Position numbers and translations under genes: made by a program. A DNA stretch of 64,000 nt, taken from assembly GCA_007378985.1 (NCBI GenBank), contig VMHB01000003.1, positions 28,283 through 92,282 on the forward strand. The letters are read 5' to 3'. Source of the stretch: Parcubacteria group bacterium Greene0714_7 (GTDB taxonomy: Bacteria; Patescibacteriota; Minisyncoccia; Phycocordibacterales; Phycocordibacteraceae). A model generated the notes under the pieces. It worked only from the letters and a program-made list of their open reading frames with translations. It was not told the origin of the DNA and ran no database searches. Position 1 is the stretch's first letter, and every line of letters begins with the position of its first letter. Positions 11,681 to 20,174 of the stretch are shown here, in pieces.

Positions 11681-11954
11681 GAGGGAAGGGAGGTAGGCGC
11701 ACGGGCTGGCTCTGGCGTAAATGCCTATTTTGGGTAGAATAGTGAGACATTCTGTGGTTAGCATTATTGCTTAGTTCCACAGAATTAAAGTTGTTTAACA
11801 ACATATTCCGCCGAGCGCATGGTTTTAAGAAAAACCATGCTTTCTCCGACGGCACTCGGACAATATGAAAGCATGCTTTCATATTGCTCCTCGCTTGTCG
11901 TAGGAGCTCAATTCTTGAGCTCCGGCGGAAACAAAGTGGGTAGAGCCCACGTAT

Positions 11955-12246
11955 TCCGCGGTAGCTCAATGGTAGAGCAGCTCCCTGTCCAAAGGCAGCC
12001 TTCCCGAGGAATCGGGATTGAAAAACGAGGTGAATTCGGGGAAACCCTAATCCTATAAAAGGATGGGCAATCCCGAGCCAAGCTCTGACGATTTGTTGGA
12101 GAAGGCGTAGAGACTATCCCGAAAGGGAGTAGGCCGAAAGGTCGAAGCGCCTCGCATCCAGATCGGATGATGATATAGTCCACGCCCTTCGTAATAGGGG
12201 ATCACGTGTAAGGAGTTGGTTGTAGGTTCGAGTCCTACCCGCGGAG
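11955..12246 (+). tRNA. tRNA-Asn(GUU) interrupted by a group I intron (intron 11989-12208). Exons are 11955-11988 and 12209-12246, and the spliced anticodon loop is CUGUUAA.
   Basis: 5' exon: acceptor TCCGCGG, D-arm GCTC/AATGGTA/GAGC, anticodon stem GCTCC, loop CTGT, then the intron. 3' exon: TAA, GGAGT, variable loop TGGTT, T-arm GTAGG-TTCGAGT-CCTAC, acceptor CCGCGGA, discriminator G. The intron has a P1 in which exon CUGU pairs with GGCAG (U35.G), GAAA tetraloops (GGGGAAACCC, TCCCGAAAGGGA, GGCCGAAAGGTC), the R element AGAGACTA, the S element GATATAGTCC, and a terminal G. Confidence 0.75.
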
Positions 12247-12254
12247 CTTGATAG

Positions 12255-12285
12255 AAAAAACTCTCCACTTTGGGGAGTTTTTTGT
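12255..12285 (+). terminator. rho-independent terminator after tRNA-Asn (CTCTCC...GGGGAG followed by a T-run)
   Basis: A hairpin with a T7 run and an upstream A-run, so it looks bidirectional. Confidence 0.6.
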
Positions 12286-12323
12286 ATCACTAGCACTGCG
12301 TGTGTATGGACTCGAACCGCGGG

Positions 12324-12377
12324 CCGCAGGGAGCGAAGAGCGACCGTAGGTTTCGAGCATAGCAATGCGAGAGGCGA
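12324..12377 (+). repeat. conserved element X copy A (CCGCAGGGAGCGAAGAGCGACCGTAGGTTTCGAG...GAGAGGCGA), followed by the tRNA-Asn 3'-end fragment GAGTCCTACCCGCGGAGC and a terminator
   Basis: Near-identical 34-nt core plus a similar 22-nt tail at 63026-63081. Both copies are flanked by tRNA-derived fragments. Confidence 0.5.
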
Positions 12378-12574
12378 GTCCTACCCGCGGAGCCGAGAGA
12401 GAAAATGAATCCCGCCTTGTTGGCGGGTTTTTCCTCAAGATGACTGGTCACCATTTCTCGAGAACACTTAGTATTTTACGATGAAGGAGTACAATACTTA
12501 GTGACTCGTGACCGAGTCTACCCGCGGGGCTAGGTGGATTGGTGTAATCAACTTATCTCAGTTAAAAATAATCT

Positions 12575-13579
12575 ATGAATCTTAAATACGAAATAAAGCC
12601 AGAGAACCTAAAGGTTCTTGAAATAAAACAAATAACTTTAAACAAAGATAAGTTTGGAGCGTTGACTTTTGATAAAGCATATCCAAAACTTCACGAGATC
12701 AGGAAGATGTTGGTTGAGTTCGAAGAACTTGGCTATGTTGATTTGCTTACGAGCGATGAAGTTAACGAGGTTAATAGTCTCAAGAGCCAACTACTGCATT
12801 ATGTCCAAAGAGTCAACGACTTGAATCCGGAGACAGATGCCACTTTCAACATAAATGTTAGAGATAGTTTGGAGAATGAGATAGATAACTTCTGCAAGGG
12901 TGCAACTAAACAACTTCGTGCAAACTTAGTTTTCTTAAGACAGGAGGCTGCTCGGAAGAGTACGGATCAACAATCTCTTGCTGAAGAACAAAAAGCTGCG
13001 ACTCAAGCTCGAAAACAGACGGAGGAGACGTTAAATCTACTGCAACAGAAGCTAGAGAAGCTCAACGAACGTGAACAACAGCTTGAAACTACATCAGGCA
13101 AGGTGGGTGCTAAAGCACTTGCAATTCATTTCAATACAGAGACCATTCTATATCAGGGTCGCGCGGACGGATGGTTTAAGGCTGTTGTAATTTCGTATTT
13201 ACTGTTGGTCGTGCTTACTTTAGGAATTGTGGCTTACTACACTTGGTGGCACCAAGGGGGTTGGGCAGCATTAACGTGGCAAGAAGGAACGGCAAAGTTA
13301 GCACTTCTTGCTGTCTCTTGGTACGCAGTCTCTTTCTTCATTCGTAGTTATAACGTTAATTCTCATTTGGCAGCGGTGAACCGTCACCGCACTGCCGTTG
13401 CAGGAACACTTGAAGATTTTCTAGCTTCAAATCCATCAGCTACGGGAGAAATGTTACAAAATGGAACTGATGCCATGTTTAAACACGCAGCAATAGGATT
13501 CATTACTAAGGCGGAAAAAGACTCGGGTAATCCTCTATTGGAGATTGTAAATAAGATCACAAATCCGAAACCCGATTAG
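12575..13579 (+). CDS. hypothetical coiled-coil membrane protein (N-terminal ~190-aa coiled-coil-rich region, two TM helices, C-terminal domain)
   Basis: No recognisable catalytic motif. Lower GC than flanking genes. Located in the tRNA-linked islet. Confidence 0.6.
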   Translation: MNLKYEIKPENLKVLEIKQITLNKDKFGALTFDKAYPKLHEIRKMLVEFEELGYVDLLTSDEVNEVNSLKSQLLHYVQRVNDLNPETDATFNINVRDSLENEIDNFCKGATKQLRANLVFLRQEAARKSTDQQSLAEEQKAATQARKQTEETLNLLQQKLEKLNEREQQLETTSGKVGAKALAIHFNTETILYQGRADGWFKAVVISYLLLVVLTLGIVAYYTWWHQGGWAALTWQEGTAKLALLAVSWYAVSFFIRSYNVNSHLAAVNRHRTAVAGTLEDFLASNPSATGEMLQNGTDAMFKHAAIGFITKAEKDSGNPLLEIVNKITNPKPD

Positions 13580-13672
13580 TGTTCAAACTGACCAACCTCC
13601 ACCCAAAACGTTCCGTCAAAATTTCAAAAAAATCCTTGTGGGGCTTGAAAGTAGAAAGTTCACGACCTGACT

Positions 13673-13810
13673 GGGGAGTCGAGAGAGAAAATGAATCCCG
13701 CCTTGTTGGCGGGTTTTTCATTTTTCTTGAGGCGACTGCGGGAAAGCTTTGCGCAAGAAACAAAGCCTACAAGCGGAGCATGGACCCGAAATCGGGACTG
13801 TCCCCATTTC
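13673..13810 (+). repeat. left copy of a ~130-bp repeat bracketing the R-M module (GGGGAGTCGAGAGAGAAAATGAATCCCGCCTTGTTGGCGGGTTTTT...CAAGCGGAGC...CCCGAAATCGGGACTG), which includes a terminator hairpin
   Basis: Matches 16376-16610 and, in part, 12375-12431. Confidence 0.6.
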
Positions 13811-13932
13811 CATTCTCTCAACCTTTTGAGAGAACAGTATCAACGGAGTTACCGTATTTAGTTTGAAAATCATTTTCCGTTTTCATCTCATCTGTTATCC
13901 ACATTATTGCATAGATAGCACTCTGGGTAAAT

Positions 13933-15129
13933 ATGCTATCATATAGTCACAGTAAGAACATTGATGTGAACAAACAACTTTTAGTACGAAACATCCCAAC
14001 AGAGGTCGGCGACTGGATTGAGCAAGAGCGCAAGCAGCGCAATATGTCGCAACAGGAGTTTGTACTTTCAATGCTCAAAGTCGCATCAGAAGAAAAAGAA
14101 AAAACGCTTCCATTTCATACCGAGCGTCTTTTTCCGAAACCGAACGTTCCAACTACTTTTACATTTATTGACCTCTTTGCTGGGATTGGAGGTTTCAGAA
14201 TAGCTCTTGAAAAACTTGGTGGTGAATGTGTTTATACCTCTGAATGGGATAAGTATTCCCAGAAAACTTACAAGGCGTGGTTTGGAGAGATGCCTGCTGG
14301 TGACATCAGAAAAGTGAAGCCAGCAGACATTCCTAATCACGATGTATTGGCGGCTGGTTTTCCTTGTCAGCCATTTTCGCTCGCTGGAGTTTCAAAGAAA
14401 AAGAGTTTGGGTTTGGAGCACGGTTTCAAAGATAAAAATCAGGGCAATCTTTTCTTCTATCTCGCCACGATTATTCAGGCAAAAAAACCATCAGTACTTT
14501 TCTTGGAGAACGTAAAAAATCTGCAATCACACGATGGAGGTAAAACGTGGGCTGTCATAATGAACACACTGAAAGACCTTGGATATATCACATTTACTCG
14601 TGTATATGATGCAGCGCATTGGGTTCCACAGCATCGTGAGCGCATTTTTATTATCGCTTTCAAGAAGTCAATGTTTGGAGACAATCCTGATTTCACATTC
14701 CCAGAACCACCGCCACTCAAGTCAAAGCTCAAGGAGATTTTGGAGAAAAAGCCTGACACGAAGTACACACTGACAAACCATTTGTGGCAGTATTTGCAAA
14801 ACTATGCCCGGCGTCATCGGGAAAAGGGAAATGGTTTTGGTTTTGGTATTGCTGACCCGAATGGCATTACCAGAACGTTGAGCGCCCGTTATTACAAAGA
14901 TGGTTCTGAAATCCTGATTGAACAGAAGGAGGGCAAGTCACCACGCCGTCTAACACCGCAGGAGTGCGCCAAACTGATGGGTTTTCCAAAAGAGTGCAAA
15001 GTAGTAGTATCTGATACACAAGCGTACAGGCAATTTGGCAATGCGGTGGTCGTGCCAGCAGTTGAGGCAACGGCAGCCCAAATGGTCAAAACTTTCCTTG
15101 CAAAGAAAGCCAAGCGCAAAGCAAAATAA
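13933..15129 (+). CDS. DNA (cytosine-5)-methyltransferase, Dcm/M.EcoRII family, with an N-terminal ~55-aa extension that may be a regulatory HTH
   Basis: Motif I FIDLFAGIGG, motif IV GFPCQPFSLAG, motif VI ENV, motif VIII QHRER and motif X QFGNAV. Long stretches such as TRTLSARYYKDGSEILI and RRLTPQECAKLMGF closely resemble M.EcoRII/Dcm (CCWGG), as recalled from memory. Confidence 0.85.
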   Translation: MLSYSHSKNIDVNKQLLVRNIPTEVGDWIEQERKQRNMSQQEFVLSMLKVASEEKEKTLPFHTERLFPKPNVPTTFTFIDLFAGIGGFRIALEKLGGECVYTSEWDKYSQKTYKAWFGEMPAGDIRKVKPADIPNHDVLAAGFPCQPFSLAGVSKKKSLGLEHGFKDKNQGNLFFYLATIIQAKKPSVLFLENVKNLQSHDGGKTWAVIMNTLKDLGYITFTRVYDAAHWVPQHRERIFIIAFKKSMFGDNPDFTFPEPPPLKSKLKEILEKKPDTKYTLTNHLWQYLQNYARRHREKGNGFGFGIADPNGITRTLSARYYKDGSEILIEQKEGKSPRRLTPQECAKLMGFPKECKVVVSDTQAYRQFGNAVVVPAVEATAAQMVKTFLAKKAKRKAK

Positions 15130-15130
15130 A

Positions 15131-16294
15131 ATGGCATCACCACTTACCGAAAAAGCAATCAGTGAAGCGGTACAGCACGGAAACGCGCTGTTGAAGTTCA
15201 TCTCACCAAACGACACAGGTGCAACGGGAGCGCATCAATCGGGCTTTTACTTGCCTAAATCTGCTTGGGAGATTTTTACTCCTAACGGACCAACAAAAGG
15301 CGAAAACTCCAAGCATCCCGTCAATATTGAATGGCACGATGGTAGAGTCACAGAGTCAGTAGTAACTTGGTACGGTCAAGGTACTCGTTCAGAGTATCGT
15401 CTAACTCGCTTTGGTAAGGATTTTCCATTTCTTATACCTGATACAGTCGGAGACTTGTTGATGCTGGTCCCAACAAGTAGAAACGATTTCAACGCATACG
15501 TTTTTGACCAAGAAGATGACATTGAAGAAGTTATGGCTGCTTTGGGTGTACAGCCATTTGAACATTGGTCTATTTACAAAAACGGTATTGCACAAATTGA
15601 AGATACTGATGCGTGTTTGGAAAAACAATTTCAAGAGTTCGCAAAAGCGCTTGATAAGTTTCCAAAGACCGATGTGTTTTCAAACGCAACACACAAAATG
15701 CTTGAGCACTGTGTTCGTGAACTTGCAAAACAACCTTTTGATACAAAACTAATGGAGTATTACTCAACAGAATACAAACTTTTTCAGGTAGTTGAGAGAC
15801 AAATCTGCCAGACGGAAATCAGCCGACTTTTCAAGGACGTTGATGATTTTCTACACACCGCAGCAAGTATTATGAACCGACGTAAATCACGAGCAGGACA
15901 TTCGCTTGAGAACCACGTTGATAGCATATTTACCGAAGCAAATCTGGCTCACGAAATGCAACCGCGAGTAGATGGCAAACCAGACATTATCTTCCCAAGC
16001 AAAGAAGCATATTTGGACCCTTTATATCCAACAGAGAAACTCATTGTGATGGGAGTAAAAACAACTTGCAAAGATAGATGGCGACAGGTTTTGAATGAAG
16101 GTAAACGAGTCAAAGGAAAGCATATCCTTACCCTCCAACCAAGTATTTCTTCAAATCAACTAACTGAAATGTACGAAGCAGGAGTGACGCTGGTTGTGCC
16201 ACGCAAACTCCAAGCGGATTATCCGAAAGACAGCCCGCTAACCATCCTTACTGTTGAAGATTTCATTGAGCAAGCGAAGAAACTGATTGCTTAA
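15131..16294 (+). CDS. EcoRII-like type IIE restriction endonuclease (N-terminal EcoRII-N/B3-like effector domain plus a putative PD-(D/E)xK C-terminal domain)
   Basis: The N-terminus FISPNDTGATGAHQSGFYLP matches the EcoRII N-domain signature (..SANDTGATGGHQVGLYIP), as recalled from memory. The ATG lies 1 nt after the MTase stop. The C-terminal region GKPDIIFP...IVMGVKTTCK is a candidate catalytic core. The ORF-track start at 15035 overlaps the MTase gene and is probably spurious. Confidence 0.65.
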   Translation: MASPLTEKAISEAVQHGNALLKFISPNDTGATGAHQSGFYLPKSAWEIFTPNGPTKGENSKHPVNIEWHDGRVTESVVTWYGQGTRSEYRLTRFGKDFPFLIPDTVGDLLMLVPTSRNDFNAYVFDQEDDIEEVMAALGVQPFEHWSIYKNGIAQIEDTDACLEKQFQEFAKALDKFPKTDVFSNATHKMLEHCVRELAKQPFDTKLMEYYSTEYKLFQVVERQICQTEISRLFKDVDDFLHTAASIMNRRKSRAGHSLENHVDSIFTEANLAHEMQPRVDGKPDIIFPSKEAYLDPLYPTEKLIVMGVKTTCKDRWRQVLNEGKRVKGKHILTLQPSISSNQLTEMYEAGVTLVVPRKLQADYPKDSPLTILTVEDFIEQAKKLIA

Positions 16295-16350
16295 ACGACG
16301 GCTGACTCGGAAAAGTCAGGGATATAGAAGTAACAGCTTTCATTCATAAA

Positions 16351-16375
16351 GTAGGTTCGAGTCCTACCCGCGGAG
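16351..16375 (+). repeat. 25-bp direct repeat of the tRNA-Asn 3' end (GTAGGTTCGAGTCCTACCCGCGGAG), the att-like right boundary of the islet
   Basis: Identical to 12222-12246. Confidence 0.7.
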
Positions 16376-16610
16376 CCGAGAGAGAAAATGAATCCCGCCT
16401 TGTTGGCGGGTTTTTCTGTGCAACTAACACGGCTTGCAAGCGGAGCATCGCCCTACATAGGGCGTTTTGTATTTTCTTAGACTGCGACCGTGGGGAAGCT
16501 TTTGTGTAGCTCAACAAAAGCTTGCAAGCGGAGCCGAGAAGTTGTCGTAGGGAAGCCATGTGCAACTAACACGGCTTGCAAGCGGAGCTAGGTCCGAAAT
16601 CGTGACTAAT
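16376..16610 (+). repeat. right copy of the ~130-bp repeat plus an array of degenerate CAAGCGGAGC-ending fragments and small hairpins
   Basis: Terminator AAAATGAATCCCGCCTTGTTGGCGGGTTTTT. TGTGCAACTAACACGGCTTGCAAGCGGAGC occurs twice (16418 and 16558). GGTCCGAAATCGTGACT matches 13787. Confidence 0.55.
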
Positions 16611-17154: not shown

Positions 17155-17353
17155 AAGGAACTGCTTTGCCAACAGGCTTTAACCTCATCCAGTAAGTGGA
17201 GCCCCGCCTTATTTTGTTCGGATGCTCCGCAGGTAACTAAGGTTGCCTGCGTTCGCATCCTCGGAAATGAATCCCGATACAAGATTGGGATTCATTTCGC
17301 TCGAACGCTCCGCAGGTAGTACAATAAGGCATACTCACTAATAAAAAATACAT

Positions 17354-17479
17354 ATGGGAAATAACAGCCACGGCGTAAGTTCACTCAAGAAACACAAAAG
17401 TCCTCATAAAACTGCAAAACGCCTTGCGGCAAAGAAAGTGATGCTCGCCACAAAAGCAAGCAAAAAGAAAAGAAAGTAA
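17354..17479 (+). CDS. small, highly basic 41-aa protein (MGNNSHGVSSLKKHKSPHKTAKRLAAKKVMLATKASKKKRK). Unannotated because it is under 60 aa.
   Basis: Intact ATG-to-TAA ORF in an otherwise empty 400-bp intergenic gap, preceded by strong hairpins. No SD sequence. Confidence 0.3.
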   Translation: MGNNSHGVSSLKKHKSPHKTAKRLAAKKVMLATKASKKKRK

Positions 17480-17572
17480 CCCGCGTTCGTTCCAATGACG
17501 AATGAGTTAATCTAAACTCCTTTTTATATCTCTAGGTATTAATAGAGCTTTGTTCAGAGTATAATTCTTTCT

Positions 17573-19213
17573 ATGAACAGCGTTTTTTTGGAGCTTGCCA
17601 TTATGCTTTCTGTCGCTTGTGTTATTGGATACACAGCAATGCGATTTCGACTTCCTTTGGTTATGGCGTATCTCTTAGCTGGAGTGGCGCTTTCTGCATA
17701 TAATCTTTCTGATTCAGTTGTCTTACACACTCTTCCTGAAATAGGTATAGCATTCGTGTTGTTTTTGATTGGGATGGAGCTCAATTTGAGTGAGATTCGC
17801 TCTCTAGGGCGCCCTATTATCGTAGCGACGCTTTTCCAAATTGTAGTCTCTTCTGTCGCCGGTTTTGCGTTGGCAACGTTTTTTGGTTTCTCTGGAACTG
17901 AGGCGGCAATCTTAGGCATCTCGCTCGCGTTCGCTTCGACGATTGTTATCGCTAAGATGCTTTCTGAAAGACGCGATACAGCATCTTTATATGGGAAACT
18001 TTCCATCGGCATTCTCCTTGTGGAAGACCTCGTTGCCATTATCGTGATGGTTGCTATAACTGGAAATCTTATTTCTTTCGGGTGGAGCACTGCAATTCTT
18101 ATGCCCCTCCTTATATTTACGGTTAAGGCAATAGCTTTGATTAGTGCAGCGTTCCTCATATCTCGTTTCGTACTGCCGTTCCTGTTTAATAAGATGGCGA
18201 AGTCTGTCGAGTTATTGTTCCTCGCCGCTATTACATGGTGCTTTATCTTTACCTCCGTTGCGGTTTTGGCTGGCTTTTCGGTTGTCATCGGTGCATTTTT
18301 GGCAGGTGTTGCACTCGCTTCTTCCCCGTATCAGATTCAGATTCAGGCCAAAGTAAAACCGATCAGAGATTTCTTTGTTGCATTATTCTTCATATATATC
18401 GGCTCCCAAGTTGACCTTGCGGGCATCACAAACTCTCTGCCGATAATCTTCGGATTCACCGCGCTCGCTCTTTTTATGAAACCATTTGCATATCTGGTTG
18501 GTTTAAGTTTCTTCAAATTCCGCAAACACACTCTTTTCCAGACGTCTCTAAACATGACGCAGGTATCCGAGTTCTCTCTGATTGTTGTCCTGTTGGCCGT
18601 CGAACATGGTTTCGCCTCGGAGTCCGCACTTGCAATTATTGCCGGCTCTGCTGTGCTTTCTATAATCTTCTCGTCAACACTTATGAATCATTCTGAGTCT
18701 ATCTACACATTCATGAAACCCTTCGTCGCACGATTCCAGAGAAAAGAAGCGGTTGATGTATTGCCCGATGCGATTCTTCCACCGCTGTCTGGACATGTTG
18801 TCGTTGTTGGTGCCGACAGGGTGGGCACCGTAGTCATAGAGTATTTGAAAAAGGCGAAGATAGAAGTGCTCGTTCTTGACTATAATCCTACGGCGGTGCG
18901 ACGCCTGCGTGCACAAGGCTACCATGCGCTCTATGGCGATGTGAGTGACTCTGAAATACTGGCGAACCTGCAGCTCAATACGGCCCATCTCATTATTTCA
19001 ACAGCAGGTGGGACAAGAGACAACCTCGCACTTCTTGATGCCTGTCGGATAAGTAATGTGAAGGCGCAAATCGTGGTGCGTACCGACGAAGCCGATCAGG
19101 AGCAAGTACTTCGAGATGCCGGTGCTGACTATGTCATTTTCCCGGAGCGTGTATCCGGCGACTTTCTTGTTTCAAAACTCGAAGATGAATGGCCGAACTT
19201 ACATTTTTCCTGA
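17573..19213 (+). CDS. cation:proton antiporter (CPA2/Kef-type) with a C-terminal RCK/TrkA-N domain
   Basis: Twelve to thirteen TM segments, then the Rossmann motif VVVVGADRVGTVVIEYLKKAKIEVLVLD. Confidence 0.85.
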   Translation: MNSVFLELAIMLSVACVIGYTAMRFRLPLVMAYLLAGVALSAYNLSDSVVLHTLPEIGIAFVLFLIGMELNLSEIRSLGRPIIVATLFQIVVSSVAGFALATFFGFSGTEAAILGISLAFASTIVIAKMLSERRDTASLYGKLSIGILLVEDLVAIIVMVAITGNLISFGWSTAILMPLLIFTVKAIALISAAFLISRFVLPFLFNKMAKSVELLFLAAITWCFIFTSVAVLAGFSVVIGAFLAGVALASSPYQIQIQAKVKPIRDFFVALFFIYIGSQVDLAGITNSLPIIFGFTALALFMKPFAYLVGLSFFKFRKHTLFQTSLNMTQVSEFSLIVVLLAVEHGFASESALAIIAGSAVLSIIFSSTLMNHSESIYTFMKPFVARFQRKEAVDVLPDAILPPLSGHVVVVGADRVGTVVIEYLKKAKIEVLVLDYNPTAVRRLRAQGYHALYGDVSDSEILANLQLNTAHLIISTAGGTRDNLALLDACRISNVKAQIVVRTDEADQEQVLRDAGADYVIFPERVSGDFLVSKLEDEWPNLHFS

Positions 19214-19508
19214 TATATCAGCAAGGATGTACTTCATCGCTTGTGTTACTAATACGGTCTCTAGGTGAAGCGAAATACACCTATTGACATTTCCGTTCAA
19301 TCATGTAACAATAATATTTACGGAAGGAGTGCTAAAAAATGTGGAGGTAGTGAATACTTGTGCATGTGTGAAGCTGGCCTGTGTCCTTTGCGATAAGTTT
19401 TTCTTGAAAAAGAAAAGATCGGAGCGCCTTAACTTAAGAGGTACTTTTTTTCCTAGATGTGAATTCGGGAAAGGTTTCTATAAGTGACGGCGCATGCACA
19501 GGTTGCAT

Positions 19509-19536
19509 TTGACAGGCTACACGTTGAGAGTATAGT
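19509..19536 (+). promoter_or_regulatory. sigma70-like promoter TTGACA-N16-TATAGT upstream of the 19608 gene
   Basis: Consensus hexamers about 70 nt upstream of the ATG. Confidence 0.45.
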
Positions 19537-19607
19537 ACCTCCTTAACAAAAAACCGTGAAAATTATAATTCACATTAATTAATATAAGCGATTACCGCAC
19601 GATCATT

Positions 19608-20174
19608 ATGTCTGCACTAGAAGGATTTCATACTACTAATGGTGAAGTTTATGGGGGACGAAGAGAGAACCGCTTCGGACGAGCTGAAAGTATTGCATTG
19701 CCGTTAGAGCGCTTTTCTGCAGGAAGGGAGGCGCATAGTTTGGTTTGGAAACCAAGAGAAACTAATGGAGTAAATAATTACCAGCAGACATCCTTTGGGA
19801 TGCGTGAAGCTTCAGACGGTACAGCACGCGTTATTGGTGCGACTGTCGATCTTGGATTAACGCCAGTTCATGGTTTAGTTCGTGTTGGTGCAACTATGAT
19901 GTCGGAAATGGAAAAGGCAAAGAAGATGTATGTCGGTGGTCTGGTGACGCTGATTTCTGAATGGCAAAGTCCATGGGGAAGAGTTGGGGCGCAGTTTATG
20001 ACGCCAGTCATTGCGGGTGCTTTTGTAGCTGCAGCTGTGCAGGGTGTCGTCTTGGGAGGAATTAAAGGAACGTACGGGTTACTCAAAGATAAGGCGCACT
20101 CATTCGTCAACCACTTAGGGGGTAGTGGACCGACATACTTCCAATCTGCTGCAGTAGCTTACGTTAACGAATAA
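19608..20174 (+). CDS. hypothetical protein with a C-terminal glycine-zipper-like hydrophobic segment
   Basis: TPVIAGAFVAAAVQGVVLGGIKG. No catalytic motif. Confidence 0.5.
   Translation: MSALEGFHTTNGEVYGGRRENRFGRAESIALPLERFSAGREAHSLVWKPRETNGVNNYQQTSFGMREASDGTARVIGATVDLGLTPVHGLVRVGATMMSEMEKAKKMYVGGLVTLISEWQSPWGRVGAQFMTPVIAGAFVAAAVQGVVLGGIKGTYGLLKDKAHSFVNHLGGSGPTYFQSAAVAYVNE

Follow-up and report, generated by a model that had tools for sequence, protein, structure and literature searches.

A tRNA-Asn(GUU) gene of a Paceibacterota-like lineage interrupted by a group I intron of an already known class

Introduction

The tRNA-Asn(GUU) gene at 11955-12246 (+) of the window, by which we mean the whole stretch of 64,000 nucleotides that was analysed, carries a 220-nt group I intron between U35 and U36. 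This intron is real and belongs to an already known class, which it matches on every feature testable here. Very probably, it represents an IA-like, ORF-less and self-splicing element of 220 nt that interrupts the tRNA-Asn(GUU) of a Paceibacterota-like lineage of Patescibacteria at U35/U36 and is passively inherited by it.

The class is documented in two sources. In a purely computational study, Williams (2020, bioRxiv 10.1101/2020.01.27.920355) expanded the four classical bacterial tRNA/site combinations to 21, that is by 17 new ones, which according to PMC13011429 include 'Asn.4Ug'. Asn.4Ug agrees with the window intron in its tRNA-Asn host, its anticodon-loop position 4 (after U35), the U at -1 and the omega G. 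Nakagawa, Amikura, Omae and Suzuki (mSystems 2026, PMC13011429) described 15 tRNA-Asn(GUU) introns at 35/36 in 95 complete Patescibacteria genomes, reporting that this insertion site is enriched in the phylum and that nearly all of the introns belong to subgroup IA. For a tRNA-Asn intron of Saccharimonadia, the same authors demonstrated GTP-dependent self-splicing in vitro, sequenced the ligated exons, which placed the excision at 35/36, and found that mutation of the omega-G to C blocks exon ligation (PMC13011429).

The initial annotation of the locus had considered a tRNA-Asn host to be unreported and the intron to be notable for a CPR lineage. The first claim is superseded by 'Asn.4Ug' (Williams 2020) and by the 15 published tRNA-Asn(GUU) introns of Patescibacteria (PMC13011429). 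The second falls as well, since the reported enrichment of the site in Patescibacteria makes the intron expected for the lineage rather than notable.

Compared with the published tRNA-Asn 35/36 introns of Patescibacteria (PMC13011429), the window intron shares the phylum, the host tRNA, the site, the GCAG guide, the U35.G wobble, the ...UG|UAA 3' junction, the core elements and the miscall as Thr(UGU) by ARAGORN, and like most of them it has no HEG. The validated Saccharimonadia precursor and the window gene are 78% identical over aligned columns, with the same P1 guide, the same core and the same ...GUG|UAA. Their inserts between P7 and P3' differ, the window having the two hairpins P7.1/P7.2 and the validated intron one longer element. 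The exact intron and exon strings of the window, and its Paceibacterota-like lineage, had no match in the portion of the PMC13011429 supplementary tables that was compared.

The split gene and its relatives

The 5' exon (TCCGCGGTAGCTCAATGGTAGAGCAGCTCCCTGT, 11955-11988, +) comprises the 5' strand of the acceptor stem, the D arm, the 5' strand of the anticodon stem and the loop nucleotides C32 U33 G34 U35. After the intron (11989-12208, +), the 3' exon (TAAGGAGT...CCGCGGA-G, 12209-12246, +), which is the same in intron-less alleles, supplies U36 A37 A38, the 3' strand of the anticodon stem, the variable loop, the T arm and the 3' strand of the acceptor stem, up to the discriminator base G73 (12246); CCA is not encoded. 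Once joined, the exons form a canonical cloverleaf called tRNA-Asn(gtt) by ARAGORN, in agreement with the tRNA-Asn halves and the 220-nt intron initially placed at the same coordinates. In default mode the program misses the split gene. The only other tRNA gene that it detects in the 64-kb window is a tRNA-Glu, and no second tRNA-Asn was found there.

Two metagenome-assembled genomes (MAGs) provide close comparisons. Positions 17308-19111 of the window are 95.6% identical, over a flank of 1.8 kb, to a Ca. Paceibacterota MAG (L060, JBBAAE010000006.1), and positions 17212-20083 match a Patescibacteria MAG (L078, SCTS01000005.1) at 77% identity over 2.9 kb. The initial annotation had raised the possibility of a CPR-like genome, and these matches show that it belongs to Patescibacteria. 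In both MAGs the tRNA exons are the same and the intron, of 221 nt, is 99% identical to that of the window; their loci reach 64.2 bits (L060) and 68 bits (L078) against the Rfam model RF00028.

The neighbouring genes in the window, whose GC content is 44%, encode an MFS transporter, GlpX and a class I aldolase. Taken alone, these genes and the GC content gave the impression of a genome outside CPR, which the matches to L060 and L078 prove wrong. Directly 3' of the tRNA, an inverted repeat named I2 (12249-12289, +), with 19-nt arms that are 89% complementary, is followed by a T run. Judging from sequence, the repeat and T run are probably the terminator of the tRNA transcription unit; a strict terminator scan made no call at 12249-12289. 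Upstream of the tRNA, four consecutive hairpins occupy 11815-11952 and include a perfect 26-nt palindrome (11861-11886). This region is about 90% conserved in L060 over most of its length (from 11820), and its hairpins matched no Rfam family.

Structure and subgroup of the intron

A covariance search with Rfam Intron_gpI (RF00028), the check proposed with the initial annotation, gave a match of 64.6 bits, above the gathering score of 50 (E=4.2e-14 for the 64-kb window). The start of this match at 11899 is an artefact, because the model assigns an unrelated upstream hairpin (11903-11924) to P1/P2 and treats the 5' half of the tRNA as an insertion; the true intron start is 11989. The 13-helix structure comprises a complete P1-P9 with the P3/P7 pseudoknot, P7.1/P7.2, P9.0 and a terminal G. 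It was written on the window sequence and tested on an alignment (A1, MAFFT) of 56 homologs less than 88% identical to one another. Standard pairs account for 92.1% of 3371 cells, a share that drops to 34-46% once the partners are shifted by 1-3 columns. Changes on both sides affect 36 of the 62 pairs, and the observed covariation score was reached by none of 500 shuffles. Compensatory changes are present in P2, P3, P4, P5, P6, P6a, P8, P9.0 and P9. No variation is seen in P7 or in the four exon-guide pairs of P1, which thus carry no covariation evidence either way. The minimum free energy (MFE) fold of the window intron alone recovers every nested helix (z=-2.6).

All helices are given on the plus strand. 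In P1 (11985-11998), exon nucleotides C32-U35 (11985-11988) pair with the guide GCAG (11995-11998), four pairs that are invariant in 56 of 56 sequences, and an extra pair, C11989-G11994, closes a CAAA loop. This corresponds to the 4-bp P1 with a U.G at the splice site of the earlier description, the wobble being U35.G11995. The P2 hairpin (12002-12017; 6 bp, GGAA loop) is 96.7% paired with both-side changes in six of six pairs. P3 joins 12026-12032 to 12148-12154 through 7 bp that are 99% paired, three of them compensated. In P4 (12036-12041/12071-12076), pairing reaches 100% and a single pair shows compensation from G-C to A-U; P5 (12045-12047/12065-12067) is 88% paired, and P5a (12050-12054/12060-12064) comes from the MFE fold. 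Pairing is likewise 100% in P6 (12077-12079/12104-12106), where a CG to GC swap occurs in 16 sequences, and 97.8% in P6a (12083-12086/12098-12101), with all four pairs compensated. The P8 hairpin (12155-12169; 5 bp) is 93.5% paired with four of five pairs compensated.

Towards the 3' end, P9.0 (12182-12184/12205-12207; 91.7% paired, three of three pairs compensated) encloses P9 (12185-12189/12196-12200; GUAA loop, 91.3% paired, four of five compensated). This covarying 3-bp P9.0 precedes the omega-G, G12208, which is the last base of the intron and the terminal G already pointed out in the initial annotation. That every resolved homolog ends in G is true by construction, as the junction search tested only ends in G; the validated published homolog likewise ends in G (PMC13011429).

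The six pairs of P7, presumed to be the guanosine-binding helix, are 100% paired and invariant. Its 5' strand (12110-12116) consists of G12110, a bulged A12111 and GACUA (12112-12116) within the AGAGACUA element, and its 3' strand UAGUCC (12176-12181) lies in the GAUAUAGUCC element, forming the pseudoknot across P3. P7 is part of the universally conserved group I core. The R and S elements noted earlier are both present in the intron, as AGAGACTA at 12109-12116 and GATATAGTCC at 12172-12181.

Between P7 and P3' lies an insert of 29 nt with two GAAA-capped hairpins (12117-12143), namely P7.1 (UCCC-GAAA-GGGA, 12117-12128) and P7.2 (GGCC-GAAA-GGUC, 12132-12143). Both are found in the MFE fold and have compensatory variants in the alignment, the homologs showing UCCC/GGGA, GAGC/GCUC and UCUC/GAGA. 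Pairing of P7.1/P7.2 in the MAFFT alignment is as low as 61-66% because the insert varies in length. When the insert was folded separately, two hairpins were obtained in 40 of the 77 anchored Asn introns, including that of the window, and a single hairpin in 35. Two of the three GAAA hairpins first reported are thus genuine tetraloops, those of P7.1 and P7.2, whereas the third, GGGGAAACCC, belongs to P4/J4-5/P5 and is no hairpin. Further GNRA loops cap P2 (GGAA) and P9 (GUAA).

Extra helices between P7 and P3' are an IA trait in the Michel-Westhof classification, where P7.1/P7.2 are found in phage IA introns, and to our knowledge they are absent from IC3 in that scheme. As modelled, the P7.1/P7.2 hairpins fit an IA-like intron. 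The phage IA introns (T4 td/nrdB/sunY, Twort), which likewise carry extra P7.1/P7.2 between P7 and P3', reside in protein-coding genes and often include a homing endonuclease ORF, whereas the window intron lies in a tRNA and contains no ORF. The ORFs that overlap it on the minus strand had no Pfam match, hence no homing endonuclease.

The P4-P6 sequence, AAUUCGGGGAAACC...GAGCCAAGC...GUAGAGACUA, recalls IC3 tRNA introns such as that of Azoarcus. It could accordingly be proposed that a classical tRNA intron of the IC3 type (Azoarcus/Anabaena type) moved to a new tRNA, a scenario that we find hardly credible. Classical IC3 introns occur mainly in Cyanobacteriota and Pseudomonadota, in tRNA-Leu UAA at 34/35, tRNA-fMet at 33/34, and tRNA-Arg CCU and tRNA-Ile CAU at 36/37, and they have no P7.1/P7.2; the window intron has both hairpins between P7 and P3' and sits in tRNA-Asn at 35/36. 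Published subgroup models class homologous Asn 35/36 introns as IA1/IA2, the labels given in Table S5 of PMC13011429 to homologs of Bipolaricaulota, Cyanobacteriota and Nitrospirota. Of the 28 introns at 35/36, 25 are IA (PMC13011429). An IC3 assignment from the P4-P6 sequence is ruled out by P7.1/P7.2 together with these published calls for homologs.

A functional or a decayed intron

The IA-like intron of the window has a short P1. Its anticodon stem ends in CC, which limits the pairing with the guide GCAGCC to four exon bases, and one intron pair is added. Most homologs have six exon pairs (GGCUGU with GCAGCY), as do the published tRNA-Asn 35/36 introns of Patescibacteria (PMC13011429); exon positions -5/-6, which are paired in most homologs, are unpaired in the window (CC opposite CC). 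In the Paceibacterota lineage, splicing may proceed with an exon-guide helix of 4 bp, which would be unusually short, and rely on the tRNA body to align the exons. No convincing P10 was recognised in the sequence when the 3' exon was compared with the P1 loop.

A P1 of four exon pairs could also be the mark of a decayed intron that no longer splices, leaving a tRNA pseudogene whose role is taken by an intron-less tRNA-Asn at another place in the genome. The view of the genome is limited to the 64-kb window, island-like insertions in which the tRNA end is duplicated adjoin the locus, and in one relative (L163, described below) an intact intron-less gene stands beside a truncated intron-bearing fragment, all of which would suit such a decay. 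Against it, the core helices and the family-invariant core nucleotides are all intact in the window, and the two exons, complete in themselves, have the same sequence as intron-less genes that look functional. The intron also remains 99% identical in L060 and L078 even though the flanks of L078 are only 77% identical. Because of this difference, sequence conservation argues that the intron is functional and under purifying selection, and we consider its decay very improbable.

Splice junction and proposed splicing

The intron ends in ...CACGUG, and junctions after U35 or after U33 both give a U at -1, an omega G and a perfect cloverleaf. Splicing after U33, with the intron ending at G12206, would produce tRNA-Thr(UGU), and ARAGORN -i indeed reports Thr(tgt) with an intron at 32-33 in its own numbering. 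This outcome is very unlikely in view of the guide and of intron-less alleles. The GCAG guide, located 4-14 nt into the intron in most homologs and about 30 nt in a few, places a G opposite U35 (wobble) and an A opposite U33 (Watson-Crick) in all 88 resolved homologs, so that the obligatory U.G wobble marks the 35/36 junction. A metagenome scan for an uninterrupted anticodon arm with either anticodon (TAGAGCAGCTCCCTKKTAAGGAGTTGG) returned at least 120 contigs. Among the matches listed, 89 have GUU, 31 are unrelated tRNA-Lys(UUU) with the same stem, and none has UGU; at least 19 intron-less contigs are identical to the Asn-spliced exons of the window and the next base (73 nt). The pair U1-A72 and the base G73, which we take to be features of bacterial tRNA-Asn as in E. 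coli tRNA-Asn, also speak against tRNA-Thr. From the wobble and the intron-less alleles, we infer that the ambiguity is resolved in favour of Asn(GUU) at 35/36, which was the junction preferred from the outset.

The same two-base ambiguity, with a miscall as Thr(UGU) 33/34 by ARAGORN/tFind, has been described; for a homolog, the sequence of the ligated exons settled the matter and refuted the miscall (PMC13011429). For the occasional confusion of Asn.4Ug with Thr.2Ug, that article cites the Williams 2020 preprint.

From the anatomy of the intron and established group I chemistry, the following pathway can be proposed. The precursor would be transcribed and the intron would fold into P1-P9, the guide GCAG pairing with exon C32-U35 and thereby presenting the U35.G wobble. 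An exogenous guanosine in P7 would attack the phosphodiester after U35. G12208, positioned by P9.0, would next enter the G site, and the 3' OH set free on U35 would attack after G12208, joining ...CUGU to UAA... and restoring the CUGUUAA loop. Without a homing endonuclease, the intron would behave as an inherited passive element, which some close relatives possess and others with the same tRNA lack.

Distribution of the intron family

The species-representative genomes of GTDB were scanned with the motif CTGT-N38-68-GGTGAATTCNGGGAA-N60-90-AGAGACTA, derived from the window and published homologs and therefore strict and biased by design. At least 119 loci were detected. Among the matches listed, at least 76 are tRNA-Asn(GUU) and at least 11 tRNA-Tyr(GUA), all with the intron at 35/36; the junction script left 31 of the 119 listed genome loci, and 12 of 13 viral loci, without a tRNA assignment (incomplete loci, imperfect anticodon stems). 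About one fifth of the at least 119 listed species genomes are labelled CPR. The other labels among the matches listed include Nitrospirota, Omnitrophota, Acidobacteriota/Aminicenantes, Binatia, Planctomycetota, Elusimicrobia, Clostridia, Bacteroidota and Proteobacteria. Perhaps the Asn/Tyr 35/36 family is much commoner outside Patescibacteria than the published complete-genome survey suggested, a tentative reading that we would not yet favour.

The insert between P7 and P3' is missing from 8 of the 11 tRNA-Tyr introns among the matches listed. These tRNA-Tyr(GUA) loci without P7.1/P7.2 (L015, L043, L047, L051, L057, L094, L105 and L118) are labelled Omnitrophota in six cases, Patescibacteria group for L043 and Planctomycetia for L118. 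Their introns have the GCAG guide and the 35/36 site and are shorter, with 190-223 nt. The Omnitrophota tRNA-Tyr branch may have lost P7.1/P7.2. Only the distribution, with at least 119 species genomes and this Omnitrophota branch devoid of P7.1/P7.2, can be called mildly new.

The family motif also occurs in 13 contigs of IMG/VR that are labelled viral (L240-L252), of which L241, from a 543-kb UViG, is alone resolved as an intron-containing tRNA-Asn. For the other 12, phage tRNAs, prophage flanks and mis-assigned CPR contigs are all conceivable. A tRNA-Asn of the family with its intron was also found on a 15-kb contig labelled 'MAG: Klebsiella pneumoniae' (L042, CAMBFS010000088.1). This contig has most likely been mis-binned, and the intron would then not come from an enterobacterium.

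Implications for annotation

The locus adds one more member to a published intron class, in the phylum of its reported enrichment. Its tRNA-Asn is either missed (ARAGORN default) or called tRNA-Thr(UGU) (ARAGORN intron mode), and automated annotation would report a tRNA-Asn as absent or a tRNA-Thr as extra. A tRNA-Asn reported as absent leads in turn to an underestimation of genome completeness, a consequence of missed intron-containing tRNAs already raised in PMC13011429. The family alignment (A1) and its covariation-supported structure are usable as a seed for a dedicated covariance model.

Apparent insertions at the 3' end of the tRNA gene

The last 19-26 nt of the tRNA-Asn (12229-12247) recur as exact copies at 12375-12393 and 16350-16376 and as a degenerate copy at 12512-12530. 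Direct repeats of about 57 nt, terminator hairpin included, are found at 12375-12432 and 16358-16415, and the flank beyond them resembles the L060 flank directly 3' of its tRNA. This resemblance and the duplicated tRNA end suggest, at the sequence level, that the 12247-16358 interval was inserted at the 3' end of the tRNA, in one or several events accompanied by att-like duplications.

Besides a 334-aa ORF with a weak PADLOC match to LeoBC (E=1e-4) and no Pfam match, and an ORF of 95 aa, the cargo of this island (12575-16294) comprises a type II restriction-modification module. It consists of a Dcm-type C5 cytosine methyltransferase (13933-15129) together with an EcoRII-like restriction endonuclease (15035-16294). 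No integrase was seen within 12247-16358. The counterpart interval of L060 is similar in length and not similar in sequence.

Related loci were also inspected for an intron-less copy in the same context. In L137 and L177, a DUF1003 gene lies near an intron-less tRNA-Asn in a different orientation, which gives no clean presence/absence comparison. A contig from a Hainich groundwater metagenome (L163:740-1240, -) carries an intact tRNA-Asn without an intron, whose sequence is that of the spliced exons of the window. About 100 nt downstream, it contains a 5'-truncated tRNA-Asn copy (from the D arm) with a diverged group I intron, which scores 43 bits against RF00028, below the cutoff. This truncated copy may have been left behind by a replacement or integration event at tRNA-Asn.

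Downstream of the island in the window, three further short repeats ending in ...GCTTGCAAGCGGAGC are present at 16430-16590, and GTGCAACTAACACG precedes two of them. All three resemble additional degenerate remnants of the tRNA end or att sequence.
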